From positions 1 to 61,938 of IMG/VR virus record IMGVR_UViG_3300044806_000236: a stretch of DNA of 61,938 nt; one strand, 5' to 3'. Below the pieces are notes generated by a model. That model worked only from the letters and a program-made list of their open reading frames with translations, did not search any database and was not told the DNA's origin. Position 1 is the first letter of the stretch. Each line of letters begins with the position of its first letter. The position numbers and the translations under genes are program-made. The stretch is from a virus (Duplodnaviria > Caudoviricetes). Shown here piece after piece: positions 1,439-39,092 of the stretch.

Positions 1439-2512
1439 TTATGCGTACTGCCCGCCGGTTGCTGTGGTTCCTGCTGAATTGCCAGGAAGCAGCGTCGTGT
1501 TTCCGGTATAGGTTTGAATGACGCCGTTCATGCTCACCGCGAAACGAACGCCGGTTGCTGAACCGCTGTAGGTGTTATTGTACAGTTCCATTGCCCCACA
1601 GGTATCGCTCACTGCGTATGCAGTAGAAAAGTTCGGCGTACCAGTAATTGTTACAGTCTTGCTCGATATTCCTATCTGTCCTGTCTGGATGGACTGCGCA
1701 TGTATTGGCGCTGCGCCAACAATTGAATAGTTACCTGAAGCGGATACGTTTCCTCCGAAACTGGCCCGAATGTGTGCTGCTGTGGCACCGTTGAACTCTA
1801 CATTAGAGAACGAAAGCAGTCCGCCAGTTGTCGCGTACAGGCAAAAACTTGAAGAAGTGTTGATCCGTGCGTATTGCACCTTTAGAACAGCGTTTTTGAT
1901 AGCTGACATAGAACCGATTACAGTATTTGCTGGCGTTGATGTGTTTCCTTCAACAATCATTTCGCCGCCGCCAATAAGCGGCATCGCTAACGCCGCCGAT
2001 CCGGTGTACGTGCCGTCCGCAACTTTTGCCGTTACGCTGTAACCGCCTGTGTCTAGCAATACCGCAACGTCCATAGCTTTCTGGATAGTCAGGAACGCGC
2101 CGCCGGAAGCGTTAGTCAAGCCGGTATTCGAGTCGCTCCCATCCGTGCGAACATAGTACGTTCTCGCCGCAGTCAGCCTCTCACGAATCGAGCGGCCCTG
2201 TAACGCAGTCAAGGTGACAAACGCCCGTTTCGTTCCTGCTGCGAAATTCACCGCCGCATCGGAATTGCTGGAAGAAAGAACTGTCGTCCTGGTCAGCGTA
2301 TTCGCCGCGGAGTACGTGCCGATACCAACTTCCCAAGCACCAGAAGGCCCACCAGCGGCATCGACTTCCTTGATTGCGTAGTAGCACGTATCGCCAGTGC
2401 TGTAGCGGCTCGCAAAGGTAGAGAATCCGGTAATCGCCCCGGCAAGCGTGAAGTTTCCCGTACCAGTTGTGGTACTGGACTCCATTACATTGTCGAATAG
2501 TTTGAAGGCCAT
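1439..2512 (-). CDS. Putative tail fiber/tailspike protein
   Basis: N-terminus DNVMESSTTTGTGNFTLAGA...WEVGIGTY...LTRTTVLSSSN is typical of phage fiber heads. YYVRTDGSDSNTG...FLTIQKA is followed by a beta-helix-like region. Confidence 0.75.
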   Translation of the reverse strand: MAFKLFDNVMESSTTTGTGNFTLAGAITGFSTFASRYSTGDTCYYAIKEVDAAGGPSGAWEVGIGTYSAANTLTRTTVLSSSNSDAAVNFAAGTKRAFVTLTALQGRSIRERLTAARTYYVRTDGSDSNTGLTNASGGAFLTIQKAMDVAVLLDTGGYSVTAKVADGTYTGSAALAMPLIGGGEMIVEGNTSTPANTVIGSMSAIKNAVLKVQYARINTSSSFCLYATTGGLLSFSNVEFNGATAAHIRASFGGNVSASGNYSIVGAAPIHAQSIQTGQIGISSKTVTITGTPNFSTAYAVSDTCGAMELYNNTYSGSATGVRFAVSMNGVIQTYTGNTTLLPGNSAGTTATGGQYA

Positions 2513-2521
2513 GACGCCTCC

Positions 2522-2932
2522 TTACAGCGTGACGGTCAGGGCGCTGATGAGCAAGGGGCCGCCGATAACTACAGAGGTCGTGTTCATCTGCATGGAGCCG
2601 CCACCGCCAGTAGCAGTAATGTCGACGTCCATGACAACCGTTCCGGTGCTGTCGGCAATTCGCGCCCACGCTGCGGTCCCGGTAGCATCGGCCGACGAGT
2701 CTTGCGTAATTGCGGAAGCGGTGAATACACCGCCTGACGCGCTCGCCCCGGACGGATCAGAGAACGTCAAAGTACCGAGTAAAACCTGAGCAGCGATTGC
2801 GTCAGAAGGGAGGGTCGCCATCGGAGACGTGTAAACTTTGATGGTGCCTGCACCAGAACCAGCGTCGATTGCGTCTTTGACTGGGGTGAGCATGGAGTTC
2901 TTGAGGGTGGTTGCGATACGGACGATTGCCAT
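2522..2932 (-). CDS. Small virion structural protein (fiber-associated type)
   Basis: 136 aa with GTIKVY...LGTLTFSDP...DSSADATGTAAWARI; AGGAGC RBS; precedes the fiber gene. Confidence 0.65.
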   Translation of the reverse strand: MAIVRIATTLKNSMLTPVKDAIDAGSGAGTIKVYTSPMATLPSDAIAAQVLLGTLTFSDPSGASASGGVFTASAITQDSSADATGTAAWARIADSTGTVVMDVDITATGGGGSMQMNTTSVVIGGPLLISALTVTL

Positions 2933-2943
2933 GATGCTGCTCC

Positions 2944-3426
2944 TTACGTGGGTGTGTGCGCAGCGCGCGATGGTTTATTGTTGATGGAAAGAGTCTCCTG
3001 CATGTGGCCGGAAACGACGGATTCAGTTGAGTGGTTGGCGAAGACGTGAAACTGCTCGACGCTTGCGTGCAAGGATTCATTTCCCGTAACTGCGTAAGCA
3101 ACGCGCGTTTCCTTGAGTTGCTTTGGTGCGGCCTGCCTGACCTGACGCTGCGGCTTGTCTGCCGTTACCGCCCTGCGCGGCATGACAACCAGCGTTTGAT
3201 CGCCAGCCTGCGCGCGGATGACATCGACGGAATCAATGGCCGACAGGTTGTTGCGCTCGGCAACGGCGACGATGCGCTCGACCACCTCCATCGCATAGAC
3301 CGATTGCAGGACGTGACGAACATAGACGCGCTGCGCTCCGGTGAGGTCGAAGTACGGGACTTCGAGCAGGAACATCCATGAATCCGTGCTGAACGAGTCC
3401 AGCGAGAATGAATCCTCATGGAACAA
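2944..3426 (-). CDS. Hypothetical protein, tail module
   Basis: 160-aa ORF overlapping the upstream stop. Confidence 0.55.
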   Translation of the reverse strand: MFHEDSFSLDSFSTDSWMFLLEVPYFDLTGAQRVYVRHVLQSVYAMEVVERIVAVAERNNLSAIDSVDVIRAQAGDQTLVVMPRRAVTADKPQRQVRQAAPKQLKETRVAYAVTGNESLHASVEQFHVFANHSTESVVSGHMQETLSINNKPSRAAHTPT

Positions 3427-4246: not shown

Positions 4247-5787
4247 GTATTGGTCGCTGCGTAGTCCCACACGCCAAGGCTACCGTCAGCAAATAGCGTA
4301 GTGACCCGGTATGTCGTGCCGCTGGTGATGCTTGCATCCTTGACCACACAAACGCCGGTTGTATCATGCGTTGTCTGCCCGGACTTGCGAACGACTAGCG
4401 CCCCAGTGGCGATATTGTGAATATCGACCTGCACGCCGGTTTCGCTGGTTTTTAGATTGCCGGTGCCCCAATCCCTGACCGCCGGAATCGTGATTGTGCC
4501 AATCAACAGCGTCGGACTGGCCGACAGTGCAGGGGTGGATTTATTCCCCGCTGCGTCGTAGGCGCGAACCTCGAATGTATCCGTGCTGCCGGGTGTGCGG
4601 GCGCTGATACCAATCGTCAGCACATTACCGGCATCGACCCACGAGCCTGCATTCAGCCGGTATTCGTAGCCCGTCACTGCCACGTTATCGCTACCGGAAG
4701 GCCATGTTGCGGTGTAGCTTGTCGTCGTCTTTGAGGAGATCGTGATCGAACCAGTCAGCGTCGGTACAGTCGTATCTGCCGAGCCGGTCGTGAATTGCGC
4801 CGACGTGGCCACGGTCGAGTTGTTTGTCGCCGCGTCCTTATGCTGGAAGTGCGCGTAGTAAGCTGTGGCCGATGTCAGCCCAGTGATGCTGAAGGTCTTC
4901 GCGCCCGTGCTGGATACCGCCTGATTGCCCGACCAGACCGCTGCTGCGCCAGTGTGATCCTGTCCTGCCTGAATCTGTGCCGCGCTCGGCGCAGTCGCCG
5001 ATGCGCTAACGACACTATACAGCGTGCCGTTGCCTTCATCGGTCGTGACGTTGCCGGTGCCGGTCGTCGTGCCTACTGAGGTGACTGATGGGCTGGTTAT
5101 GGTGGGTGCTGTTGAATCTCCTGACGAAACCAGCGCAAACGCATTGCTCGCCCCGAGCGAATCATGCAGGTCTGCTATTTCGGTGGAATTAAGAATCTTG
5201 TTGAATACTGCAATCCAGACAATATCTGCCGTGATTGAAGAAAAGCCCGAAGAACCACCAATTGCAGAAAGCTCTGCCGCCCCTGAGTTGTAACCGAGTC
5301 CGGCACCTGAGCCGATAGACGTTTTGTCAAGATAGACTTGGTTCGCTGTTTCGCCAGTTCGCGTAAATGCAATTGAGTGCGCTGTTCCCGTGGTTGCATC
5401 GCCCGTATATCCAACAACCGCATCAGCAACCCCGCGAGAAGCAATAACGCTTGTTTCATTGATGCCCACGCTAGGACCAGCAACGCCAGAGATTAGATGC
5501 CCGTATCCAGTATTCGCGCCTGCTGAGTTAATGACAACGAAAACCGTTGTGTTTGGATTTGACGAAGTATTGACCGCAATCGCAGGAGAAAACGTCGCCC
5601 CCTTTGATGTGTAGCCAGCTTCTAAGCTGTGGAATGCCTCGCCATAGGTGCCAGAGGTATAGCTTGCATCCGTGTGTTTGGTGAATGTTCGCGCCGTCTT
5701 GTGCGAGACAAGCGCACCAGACTGTACGCCAATCAGTTCAACAAGGTTTGCGTAAAGGGCGTGTCCGGTGTTGAGTGTGTAGGCCAT
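4243..5787 (-). CDS. Virion adhesion protein: LamG/ConA-like plus two FnIII/Ig-like domains
   Basis: WIAVFNKILNSTEI is a LamG-like end. DSTAPTIT and DTTVPTL...SDNVAVTGYEY...FEVRAYDAAGNKS are fibronectin-III signatures. Confidence 0.75.
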   Translation of the reverse strand: MAYTLNTGHALYANLVELIGVQSGALVSHKTARTFTKHTDASYTSGTYGEAFHSLEAGYTSKGATFSPAIAVNTSSNPNTTVFVVINSAGANTGYGHLISGVAGPSVGINETSVIASRGVADAVVGYTGDATTGTAHSIAFTRTGETANQVYLDKTSIGSGAGLGYNSGAAELSAIGGSSGFSSITADIVWIAVFNKILNSTEIADLHDSLGASNAFALVSSGDSTAPTITSPSVTSVGTTTGTGNVTTDEGNGTLYSVVSASATAPSAAQIQAGQDHTGAAAVWSGNQAVSSTGAKTFSITGLTSATAYYAHFQHKDAATNNSTVATSAQFTTGSADTTVPTLTGSITISSKTTTSYTATWPSGSDNVAVTGYEYRLNAGSWVDAGNVLTIGISARTPGSTDTFEVRAYDAAGNKSTPALSASPTLLIGTITIPAVRDWGTGNLKTSETGVQVDIHNIATGALVVRKSGQTTHDTTGVCVVKDASITSGTTYRVTTLFADGSLGVWDYAATNT

Positions 5788-32387: not shown

Positions 32388-32653
32388 TTCTTCACCCTAT
32401 TCCATGGACCGACTAGAGTTTCGCTCAACTTTATGCCGCCCGTCAACTTTTCTCCGAATTTATATTCGCCTTCTTTGGCGTATGTCACCTTGGCGCCGGG
32501 GAATTCTTCACGCGTCTTATCTACCCATGCGGAAACCTGCGGCATCCTGGCGCGGTTCTCGGCTGCTTGCTGCTGCTTGATCTTGACGCGCTCGGCTTCG
32601 CGGTCAGAAGATTGCCGGCGTAGTGACTCGACCTTGGAAAACAGATCGCTCAT
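32384..32653 (-). CDS. Hypothetical protein
   Basis: ATGA coupling. Confidence 0.65.
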   Translation of the reverse strand: MSDLFSKVESLRRQSSDREAERVKIKQQQAAENRARMPQVSAWVDKTREEFPGAKVTYAKEGEYKFGEKLTGGIKLSETLVGPWNRVKK

Positions 32654-33213
32654 ACGAACGCTCCGTCTCGGTAGGTTTTTAGAAGGTGACCATCGGCCGT
32701 GCAGATACCGTCAGATACCATCTGCTCGATGCAAGCCTTGAACCGGTGGTCACGATCGGCCGCATCGAAGATGAAAGCCAGGTGCGCAGCAGTACGCGGA
32801 TGAGTAGCCCAGTGCGTGTCGATTCCATCATGGATCTTTCCGGCGCCGATCGAATCACCGAGGCGCTTCGCCATGACTCGTTGATGCTCGACTTCTTCTG
32901 GTGTCTGCTTATGGGTAAGAGCTGGAGTATTCGGCCCGATACGCTTTGCGACGTCGCGGCAAAGATCAGCGAATTGCGGTGCGTTTGGCGGGAAGTCGCG
33001 AGGCAAGTTCTTCAGGGCGCCAGCGATTGCGTCAAGGTTATCAGCAAATCCAGCAAGCTCTTCGGCCCACGCTTCTTTGGCGCCAAGTATTCCGACATCG
33101 ACGTCGTTTTCGACGCGGCTGAACTTGGCCGTGAATTGGTTTCCATACGCTCCGAGAAGTCTGTCAAAAATTCTGGCTACAACACGGTCGTTAAGTCGTG
33201 GTGTGGTGGTCAT
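32650..33213 (-). CDS. Lambda P-like replication accessory protein
   Basis: IFDRLLGAYG...WAEEL...FPPNAPQFADLC; follows the initiator gene. Confidence 0.6.
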   Translation of the reverse strand: MTTTPRLNDRVVARIFDRLLGAYGNQFTAKFSRVENDVDVGILGAKEAWAEELAGFADNLDAIAGALKNLPRDFPPNAPQFADLCRDVAKRIGPNTPALTHKQTPEEVEHQRVMAKRLGDSIGAGKIHDGIDTHWATHPRTAAHLAFIFDAADRDHRFKACIEQMVSDGICTADGHLLKTYRDGAFV

Positions 33214-33953
33214 ACGATTTCCCCTTGGATCAGTTTTTCTGTGTTCTGCATCGGCGTCCCATAAATTGCCCTCATGGTCGCCTCGCTGTTGCGTTGCTTC
33301 TCGCTCTTGAAGCCATTTACCTGCTGCGTCACAGCCTTCTCATTCCGCACCCATGTTCGCCAGGTTGCAGACCAATCGACTTTCCTTGCAGCAGCCCCAC
33401 CCTTGGCACTCCAGTAGTCTCTGAAGTTCTCGACAACCCTGCCGACTTGCAGGTCTGGCCTTTCGGTTTGGCAGTAGGAAACTTCTGCTTCGCTAGGGCT
33501 CCAGTCAGCAGGCAAACGCGTAGCGGTTGCACCTACGCTTTTGACTTTAGGTTTACTAATGGGTATTGGGTTATGGGTAGCATCGTTTTTTGGTTCGTTC
33601 GCATTGCGGTCGGAATGCGTTCGCAATGCGTTCGCATTGTTTTTCTTCTTGCCCCAACGCGCGTTTGCGCTTTCCCTGGCCCTGGCTGATTTTCCGTAGA
33701 ACTCGGCTATCACTGCATCGCAGCGTGATTGATGCCACTTTCCGTCATGCAGGAAAAAGAAATGCTTCAGGATCTGCTCAACGTCTGCGGAATTCGACCC
33801 GATCTTGAATGCGATCGCATTGCAATCGGTATCCAATGGCTGTTCGGTCGCATAGTATTCCCAGATCAGGCGAAGGTAGGCCATACCCTGAGAATCTGTA
33901 AGCCTGGCTGTATCCTTGATGAAGTCGCCGATGTGGTGCGGGTAAAACTTCAT
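33210..33953 (-). CDS. Replication initiator (DUF1376/YdaU N-terminus)
   Basis: MKFYPHHIGDF..DT..L...AYLRLIW.YY; C-terminus FRDYW...DWSATWRTW; start revised to 33953 (AAGGA RBS). Confidence 0.85.
   Translation of the reverse strand: MKFYPHHIGDFIKDTARLTDSQGMAYLRLIWEYYATEQPLDTDCNAIAFKIGSNSADVEQILKHFFFLHDGKWHQSRCDAVIAEFYGKSARARESANARWGKKKNNANALRTHSDRNANEPKNDATHNPIPISKPKVKSVGATATRLPADWSPSEAEVSYCQTERPDLQVGRVVENFRDYWSAKGGAAARKVDWSATWRTWVRNEKAVTQQVNGFKSEKQRNSEATMRAIYGTPMQNTEKLIQGEIV
33597..33821. repeat. Iteron-like repeats, putative replication origin
   Basis: AATGCGTTCGC twice in tandem (33614-33635), GTTCGCATTG (33597) and palindrome AATGCGATCGCATT (33808-33821), inside the initiator gene. Confidence 0.55.
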
Positions 33954-33959
33954 TGACAA

Positions 33960-34086
33960 AGTTCCTTTGGTGGTCGCCCCATCCGGTGAGTGTTCCGGTA
34001 GGCGGCGACTATTGCTAGTCTGTACGGGCAGACGAGGCGACCAACGAAGGAACCTGTCCGCACTACTATGCGTCCTCACAACGCCT
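33960..34086 (-). ncRNA. Structured 5' leader of the initiator gene (c4-like architecture)
   Basis: Long stem GTTCCTT..TGGTCGCCTC/GGGGCGACCA..AAGGAAC, hairpins GCG-TTGTGAGGA-CGC and CCGG-AACACTCA-CCGG; TAGAAT at 34091-34096. Confidence 0.6.
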
Positions 34087-34208
34087 GATAATTCTAACAT
34101 CATTATGGTGAATCGGTACGCATCCTACGACAAACGGAGACTCAAGATCAACACAATTTTGTAATTTTTCATGGCCAGAAAAAAGATAGAAATTTTTCCT
34201 GAAAACTG

Positions 34209-34237
34209 TTGATTTAATCTCTTTTATCAAATAGTAT
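34209..34237 (+). promoter_or_regulatory. Sigma70-like promoter of the recombination arm
   Basis: TTGATT-17 bp-TAGTAT in an AT-rich divergent intergenic region. Confidence 0.55.
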
Positions 34238-34282
34238 CGGCATATCGGATGCGCACAGCATCTGCGTGATGGAGGGAAAACA

Positions 34283-34408
34283 ATGAACAACTACCGTGCC
34301 TACGAACTGCTTCAGATGAAGGCCAGGATTATTCGTATCGCTGTTGGAGTTGCTGGTGGGTTCTCCCTTCTTGTTCTGATTCTTGGACTCTTAGGAAAAC
34401 TGAAATGA
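34283..34408 (+). CDS. 41-aa membrane peptide
   Basis: GGAGG RBS; one TM; ATGA coupling to the next gene. Confidence 0.6.
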   Translation: MNNYRAYELLQMKARIIRIAVGVAGGFSLLVLILGLLGKLK

Positions 34409-34587
34409 CCATCGATCACTCCGACCCAAGCTTCAGGTATCCAGAACTCTGCAAGACATGTGGCGAGCACTACGCCTACAAGCGGGGCCAGTGCTACGAG
34501 TGCTACGAAGCAGACGAATGCGAACACGCCGACCAGCAGCGCAAAGAGCGGCTGATTGAAAAACACTTTGGAAAGGAAGAAGAATGA
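34405..34587 (+). CDS. Small zinc-finger protein
   Basis: CKTC...CYEC. Confidence 0.65.
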   Translation: MTIDHSDPSFRYPELCKTCGEHYAYKRGQCYECYEADECEHADQQRKERLIEKHFGKEEE

Positions 34588-35501
34588 GCAATCTCGCAGT
34601 ATCAAAGCAACAGGCCAGCGTTCCGGCGCTTGCCATCAACGAGGAAGAGTTGATTTCCGTTCTACAAAGCTCGGTCTATCCGGGCGCCAAGCTCGAAAGT
34701 ATCAAGCTGGTGATCGGCGCCTGCCGTGCGTCTGGAAAAGACCCGCTGAAGAAGCCGTACCACATCGTCCCGATGCAGGTTTCGACCGGCAAGAAGAGCG
34801 ACAAGGGTTGGGACATCAAGGAATGGCGCGATGTCATCATGCCGGGCATCAACGACTACCGCACCGATGCGTCCCGTACCGGGCAGCACGCCGGAACGTC
34901 TGAGCCTGAGTTCGGCCCGGACAAAAACGAAGTGCTTAATGGCGTCAGCGTCACCTATCCAGAGTGGTGCCGCGTCACGGTAAAACGCCTGATTCCAAGC
35001 GGCCAGATCGTTGAATTCTCCGCGGTCGAGCGCTGGAAGGAAAACTACGCTACCGCTGGCCGAGACAAAGACGAGCCGAACGCGATGTGGAAGCGCCGGC
35101 CCTATGCGCAGCTTGCCAAGTGCGCCGAGGCCCAAGCGCTCCGCAAGGGCTTCCCTGAAGTCGGAAGCCAGCCGACCGCCGACGAAATGGAGGGCAAGGA
35201 AATCGACATGGGCGCGGCTGAAGTCGTCAGCCACACGCCGGCTAGGACAGATCCTCCGACGTTGCCGCCCTACCCGCCAGAGCAGATGGAGGTTGATCTT
35301 CCAGCAATGGCTGGCGCCATCAAGTCAGGAAAGCGCAGCGCGGATTTCCTGGTGTCTGCACTGTCATCGAAATACACGCTGACTGAAGAGCAGAAGGAAG
35401 CGATCAAGCAGCTTGGAAAGCCGGCCAATGTCGATGCGGATGGAGTTATCGACGGCGAGTTTGTTTCTGCGATGGATTCTGCTGAGAAGGAGCCGTTTTA
35501 A
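34584..35501 (+). CDS. bet: Single-strand annealing recombinase (Bet/RecT family)
   Basis: DPLKKPYHIVP, GINDYR..A.RTG and MWKRRPYAQLAKCAEAQALRKGFPE. Confidence 0.9.
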   Translation: MSNLAVSKQQASVPALAINEEELISVLQSSVYPGAKLESIKLVIGACRASGKDPLKKPYHIVPMQVSTGKKSDKGWDIKEWRDVIMPGINDYRTDASRTGQHAGTSEPEFGPDKNEVLNGVSVTYPEWCRVTVKRLIPSGQIVEFSAVERWKENYATAGRDKDEPNAMWKRRPYAQLAKCAEAQALRKGFPEVGSQPTADEMEGKEIDMGAAEVVSHTPARTDPPTLPPYPPEQMEVDLPAMAGAIKSGKRSADFLVSALSSKYTLTEEQKEAIKQLGKPANVDADGVIDGEFVSAMDSAEKEPF

Positions 35502-37183
35502 TGAACCGCATAACCCATGATTGCCAGCAAGGCAGCCAGTCCTGGCTCGACCTACGCGCCAAGTATTTCACCGCATCGGAACTTGCAGCGGCAGCCGGCG
35601 AAAGCAAGTACCAGACGCGCAGCGCCTTGCTGAAAGCGAAGGCCACCGGCATTGCAGAAGAAGTTGATGATGCCAAGCAACGCCTGTTCGACGCCGGCCA
35701 CGCATCCGAGGCAGCAGCACGCCCGATTGTCGAACGGATGGTCGACGCCGAGCTTTACCCGGTGACAATGAGCGTTGAAATCGACGGCTTGCCGCTGCTT
35801 GCCAGCCTTGACGGCATCGACATGCTCGGCGACGTGATTTGGGAAAACAAGTTGCGCTCCGAGTCACTTGTCGAGCAAGTCAATGCAGGCCGTCTTGAAC
35901 CGCACTACACATTCCAGATAGAGCAGCAGCTACTCGTTTCTGGAGCCAGCCGGTGCTACTTCACGACCAGCGACGGAACGCCCGAAGGCACGTTCGGCCT
36001 GTGGTACGAATCGAATCCAGAGATTCGCGCAAAGGTTGTTTCAGTCTGGAAGCAGTTTTCCAAAGACCTTGCAGAATACCAGCACGTCGAAGCCAAGCCG
36101 GCCGTAGTAGCCGATGCCATCGAAGACTTGCCAGCGCTGTCTGTGCAGCTCGTCGGCCAGGTCACGGCATCTAACCTTGACTCGTTCAAGACTGCCGTAA
36201 CCGCCCGCATTCAGGCAATTAATACCGTGCTGGTCACGGATGCCGACTTTGCCAATGCCGACAAGATGGTGAAGTTCCTGGACGACGGCGAGAAGCGGCT
36301 GGATATGGTCAAGGCGCAAGCCCTGGCGCAGACGGAAAGCATTGACCAACTGTTCCGCACAATCGACGCACTGAAGGCCGAAATGCGCAGCAAGCGCCTG
36401 ACGCTGGACAAGTTAGTAAAAGCTGAGAAGGAAAACAGGAAGAACGAGATTGTCCGCGAGGCACAACTTGCATTCAACGAACACTATGGCGCGCTGACTG
36501 ATCGTGTTGGCATCGCGTTCAGTATGGTGAATGTAGGGTTCGCTGATTCAATCAAAGGATTGAAGTCGCTCGACTCCATGCGCGACAAGATCAGCGTCGC
36601 CCTGGCGAACGCCAAGATCGAGGCCAATGCAGTTGCGGACCGTATCGACGCGAACCGTAAGGCGATGGGCGAGCACGCCAGCCTGTTGCCTGACTTCATC
36701 CAAGTCTGCACCAAGGCGCCGGATGACTTCGCCGCCCTGGTCGCCATGCGCGTAGCGCAGCAGAAGGAGCGCGACGAGAAACGCCTTGAGGCAGAGCGCG
36801 AGAAGATCCGCGCTGAGGAGCAGGCGAAGGCACAGCGCGAAGCCGATGCCCTGTTGGCAGCAGAGCGCGCCGAAGCAAACCGTATCGCCGCCGAGGAACT
36901 TCGCAAGATTGACTTGGAGCGCAAGGAGAAGGAGGCGCAAACAAGGTCACAACCGGCGTCGACCGCAGCATTCGAGCCACAGCCCGGCGCCACGCTGAAG
37001 CTAGGCGAAATCAACGCCATGATCTTCCCGGTAACTATCAGTTATTCAGGACTTGAATCGCTCGGCATTCTCCCGGTAGCGCATGAGAAAAACGCCAAGC
37101 TGTACGACGCCAACAAATTCCCAACAATTTGCCGGCTGATTTCCGAGCATGTCATGGCGCAAGCGTTCAAGAAGGCGGCGTGA
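35501..37183 (+). CDS. YqaJ/lambda-exonuclease with long coiled-coil C-terminus
   Basis: QGSQSWL..R..FTASE, LASLDG, WENK and QIEQQL; partner of Bet. Confidence 0.88.
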   Translation: MNRITHDCQQGSQSWLDLRAKYFTASELAAAAGESKYQTRSALLKAKATGIAEEVDDAKQRLFDAGHASEAAARPIVERMVDAELYPVTMSVEIDGLPLLASLDGIDMLGDVIWENKLRSESLVEQVNAGRLEPHYTFQIEQQLLVSGASRCYFTTSDGTPEGTFGLWYESNPEIRAKVVSVWKQFSKDLAEYQHVEAKPAVVADAIEDLPALSVQLVGQVTASNLDSFKTAVTARIQAINTVLVTDADFANADKMVKFLDDGEKRLDMVKAQALAQTESIDQLFRTIDALKAEMRSKRLTLDKLVKAEKENRKNEIVREAQLAFNEHYGALTDRVGIAFSMVNVGFADSIKGLKSLDSMRDKISVALANAKIEANAVADRIDANRKAMGEHASLLPDFIQVCTKAPDDFAALVAMRVAQQKERDEKRLEAEREKIRAEEQAKAQREADALLAAERAEANRIAAEELRKIDLERKEKEAQTRSQPASTAAFEPQPGATLKLGEINAMIFPVTISYSGLESLGILPVAHEKNAKLYDANKFPTICRLISEHVMAQAFKKAA

Positions 37184-37185
37184 AC

Positions 37186-37302
37186 ATGACCACGAAACAA
37201 ATAATCGAGCGCCTGCGCGTAATGGTGTGCGATTGCGAGAACCAGGACGACATCGACACCATTTGGGCCGCAATCAAGCTGCTTGAAGGAATGGCAGCGT
37301 AA
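37186..37302 (+). CDS. Small hypothetical protein
   Basis: MTTKQIIERLRVMV...GMAA. Confidence 0.45.
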   Translation: MTTKQIIERLRVMVCDCENQDDIDTIWAAIKLLEGMAA

Positions 37303-37309
37303 CGACCAA

Positions 37310-37418
37310 TGGGGTGAATGCGTAGGCTGATACGCAGTGAGTCGCAACAGTGGTTTAGATAAGCAAGTCGCGGCATAGAGGCACCACAAGCCGGAGATCA
37401 GCACCGGCCGCCCCACCA
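37310..37418 (+). ncRNA. tRNA-like ncRNA ending in ACCA
   Basis: GGGGTG/CGCCCC closing stem plus ACCA; TGCGTA-GGCTGA-TACGCA and GCCGG-AGATCAGCA-CCGGC arms. Confidence 0.65.
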
Positions 37419-37443
37419 CTTTTCAACCAAGAAGGAGATTCAA

Positions 37444-37662
37444 ATGACCACAAAAGCAAAGAAGACACCGCTTATCAAGGACTACAGGAAGTTGCGCTCG
37501 AAGATGAACCTGAACCAGTCCGAATTCTGGAACCGCGTCGGCGCCACGCAATCGGCAGGCTCGCGCTACGAAACTGGCCGCACCGTGCCGAAGTCCGTCG
37601 CCGTTCTCGCGCACCAGGCATACATCAAGGGCGATCCGGTCGACGTGCGGGAGTTCAAGTAA
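37444..37662 (+). CDS. XRE-family HTH regulator
   Basis: LNQSEFWNRVGATQSAGSRYETGR; AAGGAG RBS. Confidence 0.85.
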   Translation: MTTKAKKTPLIKDYRKLRSKMNLNQSEFWNRVGATQSAGSRYETGRTVPKSVAVLAHQAYIKGDPVDVREFK

Positions 37663-37805
37663 TGAAAATGCACAGCTACACGAAGCGCGGCCCAGGCCGC
37701 CAGGTTCGCAAGAACCACGAATCAAAACGCGAATCCGAAGACCCGACGTTTGGCAACAAGATGCTGAAGAAGGCAGTCTACGGAAAACTCACCAAGCGCC
37801 ACTAA
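37662..37805 (+). CDS. Small basic protein
   Basis: TAATG coupling; MKMHSYTKRGPGR... Confidence 0.5.
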   Translation: MKMHSYTKRGPGRQVRKNHESKRESEDPTFGNKMLKKAVYGKLTKRH

Positions 37806-37820
37806 CCAACTGGAACAATC

Positions 37821-38252
37821 ATGCAAGTAAAGGTACTGAAAATTCACCCCGAGGCAACCGTCCCACAATACGCCACGGCCGGCGCTTCCGGGCTCGACCT
37901 TCACGCCAGAATCCCGCACGAAATCTATTTGCAGCCAGGCGTTCGCTATTCATGCCCTACCGGCATCGGTATCGAGTTGCCGGCCGGCTTCGAGGCGCAA
38001 GTCAGGCCGCGATCTGGCATGGCGAAGAAGAACGGCGTCACGGTATTGAATGCCCCTGGCACAGTTGACGCTGATTATCGAGGTGAAATCCTGGCGATCC
38101 TTATCAATCACAGCGACACCGCTTTCAAGATCGAGCCGAACCAGCGCATTGCGCAACTGGTTATCGCGCCGGTAATGCGGGTCGAGTTGGTTGATTCTGT
38201 CTCGCTTTCTGATACCGAGCGCGGCGAAGGCGGGTTTGGAAGTACCGGCTAG
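37821..38252 (+). CDS. dut: Trimeric dUTPase
   Basis: GLDL, RPRSG, GTVDADYRGE, RIAQLV and RGEGGFGSTG. Confidence 0.97.
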   Translation: MQVKVLKIHPEATVPQYATAGASGLDLHARIPHEIYLQPGVRYSCPTGIGIELPAGFEAQVRPRSGMAKKNGVTVLNAPGTVDADYRGEILAILINHSDTAFKIEPNQRIAQLVIAPVMRVELVDSVSLSDTERGEGGFGSTG

Positions 38253-38304
38253 CAATTTATGAAACGCTGAGTAATCAGACTCAAAACCAAAAGGAAACAG
38301 CATC

Positions 38305-38739
38305 ATGGCATCAGTCAACAAGGCAATCATCGTCGGCAATCTCGGCAAGGATCCGGAAGTTCGCTACACCGCATCCGGAGAAGCAATCGCCAATATCACC
38401 GTCGCCACTAGCGACACCTGGAAGGACAAGGAAACCGGCGAGAAGAAGGAGGCGACGGAATGGCACCGCATTTCGTTCTTCGGCAAACTGGCGGAAATTG
38501 CCGGCGAGTATCTGAAGAAGGGATCATCGGTCTATATCGAAGGATCTATCCGCACCCGCAAATGGACAGACAAGGAAAACATCGAGCGCTACACCACCGA
38601 GATTCGCGGCGACCAAATGAAGATGCTCGGCAGTCGGCCGGCTGAATCCGACCGCAGCCCGCCGGAAGACAAGCGGGCGCCAGCCAGTGACAAGCCGAAG
38701 CCGTCTTTCGATGACCTGGGCGACGAAATTCCCTTCTGA
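38305..38739 (+). CDS. ssb: Single-stranded DNA-binding protein
   Basis: [18 protein letters not shown]...TEWHR; C-terminal DEIPF. Confidence 0.97.
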
Positions 38740-38747
38740 TATTACTT

Positions 38748-39092
38748 ATGAACCTATCAACTATGCTTATGGCTACAGTCACGCCATTGTCTGATTACAC
38801 ACCAGAGCGCGCGCCGAAGAAGAAGCGCAAGCCTGGTGGTGCTGTCGGGCCAAACAATGAGCAACTGCACATGCTAACCATTTCAAAGTATCGGGCGATC
38901 TGGAAACAAGGCGAGGTTTGGCTATCCACGCGCGAGATTGAAAAGCGCCTTCGCGTTGGTCGCTGTACGGTCACTTGCACGCTGCAAAAGTGGGCAGACA
39001 AATACAGCATTGTCGAGCGCCGCCATGCGTTCGGATCATTCTCAAAGCGGCATGGCTATGAATGGGCCTGGAGCGATAGAAAGCAAAAATGA
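38748..39092 (+). CDS. HTH-like protein, paralog 1
   Basis: MNLSTML...WLSTREIEKRL...YEWAW. Confidence 0.65.
   Translation: MNLSTMLMATVTPLSDYTPERAPKKKRKPGGAVGPNNEQLHMLTISKYRAIWKQGEVWLSTREIEKRLRVGRCTVTCTLQKWADKYSIVERRHAFGSFSKRHGYEWAWSDRKQK

Follow-up and report, generated by a model that had tools for sequence, protein, structure and literature searches.

The window, the whole stretch of 61,938 nucleotides analysed here, comes from a Caudoviricetes record of IMG/VR (IMGVR_UViG_3300044806_000236). The element under study lies on its plus strand in an early recombination operon, where RecT and a YqaJ-type exonuclease are followed by a small ORF and then by the element. The gene downstream encodes an RsaL-like HTH protein, and its start codon is 26 nt past the element. 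A scan of positions 34000-39000 for promoters and terminators gave a single promoter-like site, at 34556, and no terminator on the plus strand close to the element, so within the scanned region the window copy has neither a promoter nor a terminator of its own, and its release by processing is therefore an assumption. A minus-strand ORF of 125 aa (37042-37419) overlaps the element. Neither the minus-strand ORFs that overlap it nor the small ORFs on either side had a PHROG or Pfam match. The parts of the element are listed in Table 1.

Table 1. Parts of the element in the window, in order along the plus strand.
Feature	Position	Strand	Remark
P1 5' strand (closing, acceptor-like stem), UGGGGUG	37310..37316	+	Pairs with 37409-37415
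J1/2, unpaired AAU, conserved	37317..37319	+	AAU in 178 of 192 unique copies; invariant in alignment A1
P2 hairpin, D-arm position: GCGUA 37320-24, loop GGCUGA 37325-30, UACGC 37331-35	37320..37335	+	
Kissing-helix 5' half, GCUGA in P2 loop	37326..37330	+	Complementary to 37398-37402
P3, hypervariable middle domain, anticodon-arm position	37336..37389	+	
P3 local helix, GUGGU / ACCAC	37350-54 / 37383-87	+	In MFE fold
AA before P4, conserved	37388-89	+	Last two P3 bases of the copies: AA in 123 of 226, AU in 78 of 226
P4 hairpin, T-arm position: GCCGG 37390-94, loop AGAUCAGCA 37395-403, CCGGC 37404-08	37390..37408	+	
Kissing-helix 3' half, UCAGC in P4 loop	37398..37402	+	Complementary to 37326-37330
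P1 3' strand, CGCCCCA	37409..37415	+	
CCA 3' of closing stem, within C/A-rich, G-poor tail	37416..37418	+	Not a family feature

Every feature listed in the first-pass annotation was located in the window sequence, including the middle helix GTGGT/ACCAC, which also appears in the MFE fold, and the complementarity of the two loops (GCTGA/TCAGC). The closing stem, one of whose pairs is U.G, is formed by GGGGUG/CGCCCC and possibly a seventh pair, U-A; P4 abuts it with zero linker, in the window copy as in the family described below. The first arm had been given six pairs; a sixth pair, U37319-A37336, is possible in the window, but in the family AAU is unpaired and only five pairs covary. Taken by itself, the fold of the window copy is no better than chance, with an MFE of -36.3 kcal/mol (z -1.24) that 22 of 200 shuffles equal on the plus strand and a z of -0.27 on the minus strand. 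The case for a real element comes from the comparison of copies. ARAGORN returned zero tRNA and zero tmRNA genes in the whole window. Rfam 15 gave nothing on the element at gathering score and chance-level matches only at E up to 10, with no tRNA, tmRNA, C4, YrlA, STnc100 or ribozyme match in 37200-37520, and at eight related loci ARAGORN and Rfam likewise returned nothing on the element. These results agree with the earlier statement that it is not an ordinary tRNA.

The window element is one copy of a large non-coding RNA family of Pseudomonadota phages and prophages. Searched singly, the 5' module and the 3' module each match 120 or more IMG/VR contigs; at least 120 bacterial species, nearly all of them Pseudomonadota among those listed, carry the 5' module in their genomes. 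We compiled 226 unique copies, and the scaffold was found across phages of alpha-, beta- and gammaproteobacteria. Phages P1 and HK620 carry copies, as do Stx-type prophages, and 113 of 5426 complete E. coli genomes contain the element. The motif strings themselves had no literature match, and the literature searched held no description of the kissing-loop family, with the proviso that the supplements to a catalogue of 8,495 candidate RNAs from IMG/VR (PMC10690425) may contain it.

The comparison of copies defines the scaffold. Positions 1-7 of the closing stem are paired in 95-100% of 191 unique copies, and pairing falls from 95% at position 7 to 63% at position 8, 48% at position 9 and 32% at position 10; the family closing stem is 7 bp long. 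A37415, which the first-pass annotation placed between stem and CCA, is therefore more likely to form the seventh P1 pair than to be a discriminator base. In an alignment of 81 distinct rows (A2), 98.5% of cells pair, compared to 84.9% after shuffling, a level that none of 500 shuffles reached, and 12 pairs show changes on both sides. In a further alignment (A4), 96.4% of cells are paired, compared to 82.9% after shuffling, with changes on both sides at 14 pairs. Such changes affect six of the seven P1 pairs (A2 and A4), all five pairs of the P2 stem (A2) and four of the five pairs of the P4 stem (A4; this stem was fixed by the search pattern in A2). G.U pairs occur on the plus strand only, and the length-variable indels in the middle, together with the compensatory changes, are likewise compatible with a plus-strand RNA and with neither a coding sequence nor a duplex DNA site. 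Short family members have cloverleaves as their MFE folds, with z from -1.8 to -3.7. The core GCUGA of the P2 loop is nearly invariant across the family: the canonical loop was found in at least 120 contigs, compared to only 12, 10 and 3 contigs in scans for variant loops. The commonest form of the P4 loop is AGAUCAGCA (51 of 123 copies). In the fixed scaffold, AAU leads from the 7-bp closing stem into P2, a 5-bp hairpin whose loop is GGCUGA; P4, likewise of 5 bp and with ..GAUCAGC.. in its loop, adjoins the closing stem directly, and the kissing helix joins the two loops.

The P2 and P4 loops pair as a 5-bp Watson-Crick loop-loop helix that locks both hairpins. Compensatory changes are found at two of its five pairs: U:A is replaced by C:G in seven of the eight GGCCGA variants, and C:G by G:C, A:U or U:A at loci L150, L157 and L362. 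Compensation between the loops is incomplete across the family. Uncompensated variants comprise three distinct C3-to-A changes (four rows), three G5-to-U changes and locus L175. The first-pass annotation had described a tRNA-shaped ncRNA with a kissing loop, and had suggested collecting homologs and checking them for covariation; covariation supports all four helices, the loop-loop helix among them. A structured, non-coding RNA whose four-way junction resembles a cloverleaf is supported, as is the pairing of its two loops.

Within the scaffold, the P3 arm is hypervariable. Its length ranges from 19 to 232 nt (median 78) in the 226 unique copies, whose P3 sequences form 171 clusters. The window P3 is a singleton cluster, and its local helix is a prediction of the MFE fold. 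P3 stability is unremarkable (median z -0.7, with 21 of 226 below -2), and in a search made without shuffle comparison the window P3 has no complement longer than 11 nt in its own 62-kb phage. P3 may therefore be a neutral, tolerated insertion. Neither the encoded CCA noted earlier nor a discriminator A before it is conserved among family copies: NCCA (CCA at +9..+11) occurs in 14 of 226 copies and CCA directly after the stem (+8..+10) in 15 of 226, and on these counts we rejected CCA as a family feature. By a rough estimate, this frequency is no higher than the C/A-rich composition of the tail predicts; at +8..+12 the tail is 45-55% A or C-dominated, with G at 3-11%.

In lytic phages, copies occur in tRNA clusters; in temperate phages they occupy slots that are expressed in the lysogen. 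A CI-type repressor lies at most 3 kb upstream of 49 of 330 copies, in 46 of these cases on the same strand, and other copies lie between Q and lysis genes or in tRNA clusters. Of 220 copies, 26 have a tRNA gene no more than 500 nt away, in every case in the same orientation; random placement in 1000 trials put 8.3 copies that close on average and 17 at most. For example, copies in phage P1 lie directly 3' of tRNA-Asn and tRNA-Thr and form a tandem array. A terminator-like hairpin follows within 200 nt in 41 of 213 copies, 18 of them within 12 nt. Flanking genes differ from copy to copy, and no partner protein is conserved nearby.

The family is like tRNA (RF00005) in its four-arm cloverleaf with side loops in contact, in the 7-bp terminal stem running into a 5-bp arm (a 12-bp stack without a linker) and in its place in phage tRNA clusters, in the same orientation as the tRNAs. 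Its middle arm and a tRNA anticodon arm can also stand in for each other. In the HK620/swi2 type, P3 is a module that recurs with little change in canonical tRNA bodies, where it forms the anticodon arm: with this P3 as query, matching phage records number 182, of which 150 span at least 80% of it, and those inspected are Ackermannviridae, such as Det7, where the gene is called "tRNA-OTHER". These pseudo-tRNAs (Det7 gene 194; SW16-7, SKML-39), annotated in the record as having a possible 15-bp intron, share with the HK620, swi2 and E. coli-prophage copies an arm of ~31 nt, GCAGG..AGAACAAGGUG..CCUG, in the topological position of P3, but differ from the family in having a canonical tRNA body with a D arm and a GGUUCGAAUCC T arm. 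The same module is found in phage EP_H11 in a tRNA-like body with another acceptor stem, a body classed without a separate ARAGORN or Rfam check. The window P3 is unrelated to it.

The family differs from tRNA in several ways. The tRNA elbow is formed by the conserved D-loop GG and T-loop UUCRA, whereas the family loops have neither consensus and make five Watson-Crick loop-loop pairs instead. The 3-nt AAU connector also differs from tRNA, P3 is without the 7-nt loop of an anticodon arm, an encoded CCA is not conserved, and tRNA detectors (ARAGORN and the Rfam tRNA model) reject the element. Equivalence to tRNA is supported independently by the 7-bp stem stacked on a 5-bp arm, by enrichment near tRNA genes with co-orientation, and by the occurrence of a middle-arm module in true tRNA bodies. 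Of the earlier idea of a tRNA mimic with a kissing-loop elbow, the loop pairing and the likeness to tRNA are supported; the 3' CCA encoded in the window copy, and a discriminator A before it, are not supported as family features.

Among known families the closest is STnc100/PasD, a prophage sRNA and an architectural relative. The Rfam consensus of STnc100 (RF02076) has the same outer layout, with a closing stem ..UGGUG, AAU and a 5-bp hairpin with a 6-nt loop, followed on its 3' side by a variable middle and a 5-bp hairpin abutting CACCA.., the 3' strand of the closing stem. STnc100/PasD occupies the slot between Q and lysis genes, as do family copies, and STnc100 and the kissing-loop family lie in tandem in phage P1 and are both present in Klebsiella phage P01. 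The third P1 copy matches both the STnc100 model (33.9 bits, compared to an RF02076 gathering score of 47) and our family model R1. At eight of nine loci the best R1 match falls on the STnc100 copy, end to end and in the right place and strand; these matches are weak (9-28 bits, E from 3e-6 to 0.83). The two groups differ in that the STnc100 loops, GUGCGG and AGGCA, do not have the family's 5-bp complementarity. The STnc100 model includes its own intrinsic terminator, a feature not found with the window copy and found within 200 nt of the minority of family copies counted above, and STnc100 is, going by its Rfam name, restricted to enterobacteria, whereas the family reaches phages of three proteobacterial classes. 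The window copy has no match to RF02076 at E up to 10. A recent preprint describes PasD and STnc100 as abundant prophage sRNAs from Hfq RIL-seq, with seeds, located near Q and holin (bioRxiv 10.64898/2026.05.13.724894), and STnc100 is reported to be northern-positive in EHEC (PMC5331693). STnc100/PasD and the family have one outer architecture in common, and the family is not entirely without relatives.

The c4 antisense RNA of phages P1 and P7 and the CI antisense RNA of P4 are small immunity RNAs cut by RNase P from longer transcripts. The concept would be alike, with a terminal stem that may serve as a tRNA-like processing substrate and a location in lysogen-expressed regions. The window copy differs in having no match to the C4 model at E up to 10 and no target complement longer than 11 nt in its own phage.

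We give roughly even chances to a reading in which the family is a tRNA-like chassis that displays a hypervariable effector arm, a function that we infer. The scaffold would provide a tRNA-equivalent chassis capable of autonomous folding and nuclease resistance, and would be excised from polycistronic or tRNA-cluster transcripts, probably by host enzymes that process tRNA ends. The effector would be the variable P3 arm, whose targets in trans would be RNA or protein of the host or the phage, a role that may parallel that of the Hfq-associated, seed-bearing STnc100/PasD sRNAs. In the window, the RNA would be freed from the early recombination operon, and the downstream HTH gene would not be its target. 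More tentatively, we speculate that phages of Proteobacteria maintain a dedicated non-tRNA "surrogate tRNA" chassis with a five-pair kissing elbow, interchangeable with genuine tRNA bodies, for a fast-evolving repertoire of effector arms, in effect a natural RNA display system. Such a chassis would rely on the RNase P, RNase Z and CCA-adding machinery of the host, and its payloads would hit targets in the host or in rival phages, in lysogeny and in lytic growth.

Alternatively, though with a rather low probability in our estimate, the scaffold itself could be the effector: by mimicking tRNA it would bind or titrate a host factor for the acceptor/T-arm and elbow, for instance a processing or modifying enzyme, or else a toxin or defence nuclease that attacks tRNA, with P3 as a tolerated insertion. 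That the scaffold is near letter-perfect across alpha-, beta- and gammaproteobacterial phages while P3 varies freely would fit this explanation, as would the linker-free 7+5 bp stack and the placement of copies in lytic-phage tRNA clusters and lysogen-expressed slots of temperate phages. However, three different bodies carry one and the same P3 module with hardly a change, so a neutral P3 is hard to explain; the element also has no T-loop/D-loop consensus, no anticodon loop and no conserved encoded CCA, and no conserved partner protein is found nearby. It is distinctly unlikely that the element acts in cis, whether as a processing site, by stabilising or insulating the surrounding transcript, or by regulating the RsaL-like HTH gene downstream. 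It is known that tRNA-like structures can punctuate transcripts for RNase P or RNase E, and the window element sits inside an operon, just ahead of the next start codon and without its own promoter or terminator. Against this reading, downstream genes vary between copies, some copies are followed by the terminator-like hairpins described above and others by tRNA genes, and tandem arrays such as that of phage P1 are unlike a leader. For the window gene, whose regulation the first-pass annotation had put forward, the HTH gene is not a conserved neighbour and its ribosome-binding site (37432-37437) lies outside every helix.

It is very improbable that the element is a small catalytic RNA, such as a new self-cleaving ribozyme for trimming transcripts beside tRNAs. 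The compact multi-helix junction with a pseudoknot, the near-invariant unpaired bases (AAU, AA and the loop cores) and the phage and tRNA contexts would suit one, but the kissing helix mostly explains the invariant bases and no Rfam ribozyme matched at E up to 10. Comparison by eye with hammerhead, twister and other ribozyme cores led us to reject these, as CUGA is in a loop and not in a junction. We attach scarcely any weight to the remaining explanations, that the element is a degenerate or unusual true tRNA (a pseudo-tRNA), or that it is no RNA at all but either a site in the DNA itself or a segment of the antisense ORF at 37042-37419. The cloverleaf shape and the CCA end of the window copy recall a pseudo-tRNA, yet ARAGORN and the Rfam tRNA model reject it and the arm loops keep a non-tRNA consensus in hundreds of copies. 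Coding is suggested by the overlapping 125-aa ORF and by P1-like records (RCS47, JL22) that annotate a similar antisense ORF, plp, across their copy. Against this stand the restriction of G.U pairs to the plus strand, the middle indels and the compensatory changes, which also argue against a DNA site, as well as antisense ORFs without a Pfam or PHROG match.

If the effector-arm reading is correct, the model phages P1 and HK620, together with Stx-type prophages, harbour a structured RNA family that has so far lacked a model, and the doubtful ORF plp overwrites a family copy in RCS47 and JL22. A conserved chassis with a variable arm would offer a structural rationale for the STnc100/PasD sRNAs and would tie them to the unexplained "pseudo-tRNAs" of Ackermannviridae. 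The compact natural scaffold, with its covariation-proven kissing elbow, could be a candidate RNA expression chassis, and what phages gain from non-decoding tRNA-like genes would become testable in laboratory strains.

An E. coli-type copy (locus L086) is contained in 12 RNA-library runs. The four examined are Logan contigs, one of 27 kb, and as contigs only they reveal neither ends, strand nor transcription. As an aside that we do not count as evidence, cover near a copy of this type stops by the late terminator in one run.

The RNA element in the window is a member of a family of phage and prophage elements. A sensitive BLAST search of the element's region against phage records returned matches in two short blocks only, a 5′ module and a 3′ module, in 25 records of unrelated phages and nearly always in unannotated DNA. 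The hosts or sources of these records include Aeromonas, Escherichia, Salmonella, Klebsiella, Pseudomonas and an Accumulibacter-sludge podovirus, and the five records inspected share a common plan, with differing closing stems and middles that are entirely unalike. Exact-pattern scans detected the 20-nt 5′ module and the 20-nt 3′ module each in at least 120 IMG/VR contigs, and the 5′ module in at least 120 species genomes. Among the matches listed, nearly all of these genomes are Pseudomonadota (Enterobacterales, Pseudomonas, Xanthomonadales, Burkholderiales, Nitrosomonas, Rhizobium, Methylobacterium and Roseomonas), together with a few MAGs of other phyla. Of 5426 complete E. coli genomes, 113 carry a variant of the type found in phage HK620, which lacks annotation in nearly all of the matches listed; the variant is also present in 122 phage records. 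In an even phylum sample, a covariance model of the family (R1) had matches at E up to 0.001 in 8 of 151 genomes; three were strong, including the one in the genome picked as sample centre. We conclude that the element is accessory and carried by prophages. Compilation from the collected loci gave 245 copies, 226 of them unique. At three loci in bacterial genomes (L333 in G029, L335 in G139 and L336 in G049), no 3′ module could be recognised close to the 5′ module, GAAUGCGCAGGCU.AUGCGC; remnants, split forms and chance occurrences are possible explanations.

All of the sequence features that the first-pass annotation had claimed for positions 37310-37418 were present when the sequence was read back (see table), including the complementarity between GCUGA (37326-30) in the loop of P2, the hairpin at the D-arm position, and UCAGC (37398-402) in the loop of P4, the hairpin at the T-arm position. 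As a single sequence, the window copy has an unremarkable fold (z -1.24), equalled by 22 of 200 shuffles.

Features of the window copy and the phage P1 array
Feature	Position	Strand	Basis or remark
Closing stem	U37310-G37316 with C37409-A37415	+	sequence reading
AAU	37317-19	+	sequence reading
P2 hairpin, GCGUA / GGCUGA / UACGC	37320-35	+	sequence reading
Local middle helix, GUGGU with ACCAC	37350-54 with 37383-87	+	sequence reading
P4 hairpin, GCCGG / AGAUCAGCA / CCGGC	37390-408	+	abuts closing stem directly
CCA	37416-18	+	after closing stem in window copy
Phage P1 tandem array, between tRNA-Thr and tciA	L338 (OP279344.1) 2400-3300	tRNA strand	R1

Comparison across copies establishes four helices and a kissing helix between the two loops. 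R1 was built from 45 diverse copies, with 7 bp in the closing stem and 5 bp each in P2 and P4, and a run on 82 sources gave 87 matches and an alignment, A2, of 81 distinct rows, in which the loop-loop helix was entered as a pseudoknot for pair counting. In A2, 98.5% of cells pair, compared to 84.9% in shuffles (none of 500 shuffles was as high), and pairing falls to 24.6-54.1% when the partners are displaced by one to three columns. A second alignment, A4, comprises 32 distinct rows deliberately enriched for loop variants, and 96.4% of its cells pair compared to 82.9% in shuffles. Pairs changed on both sides number 12 in A2 and 14 in A4. Covarying pairs make up six of seven in the closing stem and five of five in P2 in A2, where P4 was fixed by the search pattern; in A4, four of the five P4 pairs are among those changed on both sides. 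Among 191 unique copies, closing-stem pairing runs at 95-100% over positions 1-7 and then falls off, to 63% at position 8, 48% at position 9 and 32% at position 10, with 32-50% further out; the copy finder demanded pairing at six of the first seven positions, so the informative part is the fall after position 7. The closing stem and P4 form a 7+5 bp stack.

The kissing helix was examined by scanning for copies whose P2 loop differs from GGCUGA at one position. Such variants are rare (12, 10 and 3 contigs, compared to at least 120 with the canonical loop). In seven of eight copies with GGCCGA, the P4 loop has changed from A to G to match (UCGGC, UCGGU or ACGGC), L175 being the exception, and the closing and P4 stems differ between the compensated copies. 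The neighbouring C:G pair is replaced by G:C in L150, A:U in L157 and U:A in L362, and by U.G in L360 and L365. An A at this position is uncompensated in three distinct copies (four rows, as L356 and L361 are the same), as is a U at the next position in three copies. In A4, double changes number six at the U:A pair and four at the C:G pair of the kissing helix. These compensatory changes bear out the loop-loop complementarity originally read from a single sequence. In the copy at L072 (5′ module at 4990, plus strand), the P4 loop is 7 nt long, UUGGAUU, and GAUCAGC lies just 5′ of P4, outside that loop; the pseudoknot topology of this variant may be different.

The encoded CCA end did not hold up as a family trait. 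Of 226 copies, 14 carry NCCA at the tRNA position and 15 have CCA immediately 3′ of the stem, the arrangement seen in the window, roughly the frequency estimated from tail base composition alone; the family tail is rich in C and A and poor in G. We therefore rejected CCA as a conserved feature. The middle domain, P3, is hypervariable, ranging from 19 to 232 nt and falling into 171 sequence clusters among the 226 copies, 139 of them singletons, including that of the window. The P3 domains have no unusual stability (median z -0.7, with 21 of 226 below -2). T-arm-like hairpins with GTTCRANT loops occur in eight P3 domains (L121, L047, L103, L140, L250, L258, L016 and L029), and at L121 (7100-7178) P3 holds a near-canonical tRNA, called by ARAGORN as tRNA-Ser(GCU) and nested in the element.

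One P3 module is common to family copies and true tRNA bodies. The 31-nt P3 of the type found in phages HK620 and swi2 reappears, with 100% identity across 34 nt, inside a gene of Salmonella phages SW16-7 and SKML-39. The body of this gene is that of a canonical tRNA (7-bp acceptor, D arm, T arm GGUUCGAAUCC, then ACCA), with the module in place of the anticodon arm, and ARAGORN labels the gene ‘tRNA-???’. With this gene as query, 182 phage records match, 150 of which cover at least 80% of it; those inspected are Ackermannviridae. In phage EP_H11 the same module sits on a putative tRNA-like body with a different acceptor stem. The genes in Ackermannviridae and EP_H11 (L130 1178-1266, L352 400-488 and L353 about 393-480) have a 22-nt ‘anticodon loop’ and are annotated as tRNA-OTHER or pseudo-tRNA, with a possible 15-bp intron in the Det7 record. 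Neither the module stem nor an 11-nt stretch, AGAACAAGGUG, varies across the four contexts aligned, and the 3-bp inner hairpin is preserved via wobble changes. One effector-like arm thus occupies the same topological position on three different bodies. This is our main reason for suggesting that the kissing-loop scaffold is functionally equivalent to a tRNA body, with P3 as its payload.

Our favored interpretation, held with about even confidence, is that the scaffold is an excisable tRNA-like chassis and the P3 arm an effector acting in trans. The scaffold would fold autonomously and shield the RNA, tRNA-maturing enzymes would excise it from long transcripts, and the P3 arm would be the effector. 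In short members, minimum free energy alone gives a cloverleaf (z from -1.8 to -3.7) in the order closing stem, AAU, P2, P3 hairpin, 6-9 unpaired bases, P4 and closing stem. That the scaffold is itself a tRNA-mimicking decoy we consider unlikely. A cis-acting processing or regulatory element is less likely still. Terminator-like hairpins lie within 200 nt downstream of 41 of 213 copies (18 begin 0-12 nt past the stem), compared to 23 upstream and 12 on the opposite strand, and a scan around the window copy found no promoter or terminator belonging to it.

A ribozyme is improbable. We give least credence to a degenerate tRNA, a DNA site or a coding sequence. G.U pairs are present on the element’s strand in A2 and A4, which fits an RNA read from the plus strand. 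ARAGORN found no tRNA or tmRNA in the 62-kb window, and Rfam 15 gave no match to the window element at gathering score and chance-level matches only at E up to 10, consistent with the first-pass view that it is not an ordinary tRNA. An antisense-target search of the window phage revealed no long complement to the window’s P3. In phage swi2 (L002 1336-1710), a 375-nt ARAGORN ‘tmRNA’ covering the element and the adjoining tRNA-Met is almost certainly spurious, the tRNA-like ends having misled the program.

The closest known relatives are the prophage sRNAs STnc100 (RF02076) and PasD, described as structurally homologous (bioRxiv 10.64898/2026.05.13.724894). PasD was found in EPEC by Hfq RIL-seq; it is close to Q and the holin-lysozyme genes, carries a predicted seed and has numerous targets (bioRxiv 10.64898/2026.05.13.724894). 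EHEC EDL933 has 11 STnc100 copies, one confirmed by northern blot (PMC5331693). A copy is also situated 75 nt downstream of stx2 (PMC12370729). The STnc100 consensus has the family’s outer plan: a stem GcaUGGUG / CACCAugC, AAU, a 5-bp hairpin with a 6-nt loop, a variable middle and a hairpin CCGGG-AGGCA-CCCGG abutting the stem, followed by a terminator. However, its loops lack the 5-bp complementarity of the kissing-loop family, and the window copy fails the STnc100 model (Rfam, E up to 10). One E. coli chromosome has 19 STnc100 matches, nine over the cut-off; run on nine of the STnc100 loci with filters off, R1 placed its best match on the STnc100 copy in eight, on the correct strand and end to end (9.1-28.4 bits, E from 3e-6 to 0.83). 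Given this result and the shared outer architecture, we regard the two as sister classes.

Beyond the outer plan shared with STnc100 and PasD, the element has new features: the kissing elbow supported by covariation, the breadth of the family across Proteobacteria, its presence in phages P1 and HK620, and the exchange of arms between its scaffold and real tRNA bodies. Rfam 15 has no model for the kissing-loop class, and our literature searches found no description of it or of its motif strings. Among the 8,495 candidate RNAs that a 2023 study catalogued from IMG/VR, other tRNA-like candidates are highlighted in the text (PMC10690425); the supplements may list this class.

Family members occur in tRNA-linked and lysogen-linked contexts. 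An ARAGORN tRNA gene lies within 500 nt of 26 of 220 copies, on the same strand in all 26, compared to a mean of 8.3 (sd 2.2) and a maximum of 17 when copies were placed at random within these loci in 1000 trials. An earlier count had put 17 of 107 copies that close. A CI-type repressor (HTH_3 + Peptidase_S24) lies within 3 kb upstream of 49 of 330 copies, 46 co-stranded, with a divergent Cro/YdaS-like gene past it. NinG and the Q antiterminator each precede 14 of 330, and a phage lysozyme lies within 3 kb of 23, downstream in 19. The HK620 element is located between the annotated pR′/qut and the late terminator. In lambdoid phages, lysogens transcribe both the stretch downstream of cI and the pR′-tR′ leader, where accessory genes are commonly found. 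An E. coli-type copy (L086) is present in public RNA libraries as assembled contigs only.

In the window, a nearly complete virus record, the element is carried on the plus strand by an operon encoding RecT (34584-35501) and a YqaJ/RecE-type exonuclease (35501-37183). It sits in a 141-nt gap between a 38-codon ORF that follows these genes and a gene for a 72-aa RsaL-like HTH protein (37444-37662, plus strand; PF22495, E 2.6e-20). RsaL is tied to quorum-sensing repression in Pseudomonas. The gene layout is divergent (32650-34103 minus, 34283-37302 plus), with a DUF1376 protein (33210-34103) and a 187-aa ORF on the minus strand facing the operon.

The IME207-type P3 class led to matches in phage P1, where R1 places copies directly after tRNA-Asn and tRNA-Thr, on the tRNA strand. 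Two copies are strong (86 and 64.7 bits), one is weaker (22.5 bits) and a fourth match is marginal (14.8 bits, E 0.0097). The 22.5-bit copy scores 33.9 bits on the Rfam STnc100 model, under the cut-off of 47. In the P1-like records RCS47 and JL22, the annotated minus-strand ORF plp overlaps the first copy and so may be a mis-call. By eye, a long hairpin, GGUAAGAGCAU...AUGCUCUUWCC, precedes each enterobacterial copy examined: in HK620 (L127, about 2400-2500), directly upstream of the element in L002, L003 and L129, and ahead of every unit in the phage P1 array (L338 2400-2470, 2614-2670 and 3097-3160). This hairpin may serve as a processing site or belong to a larger repeat unit.
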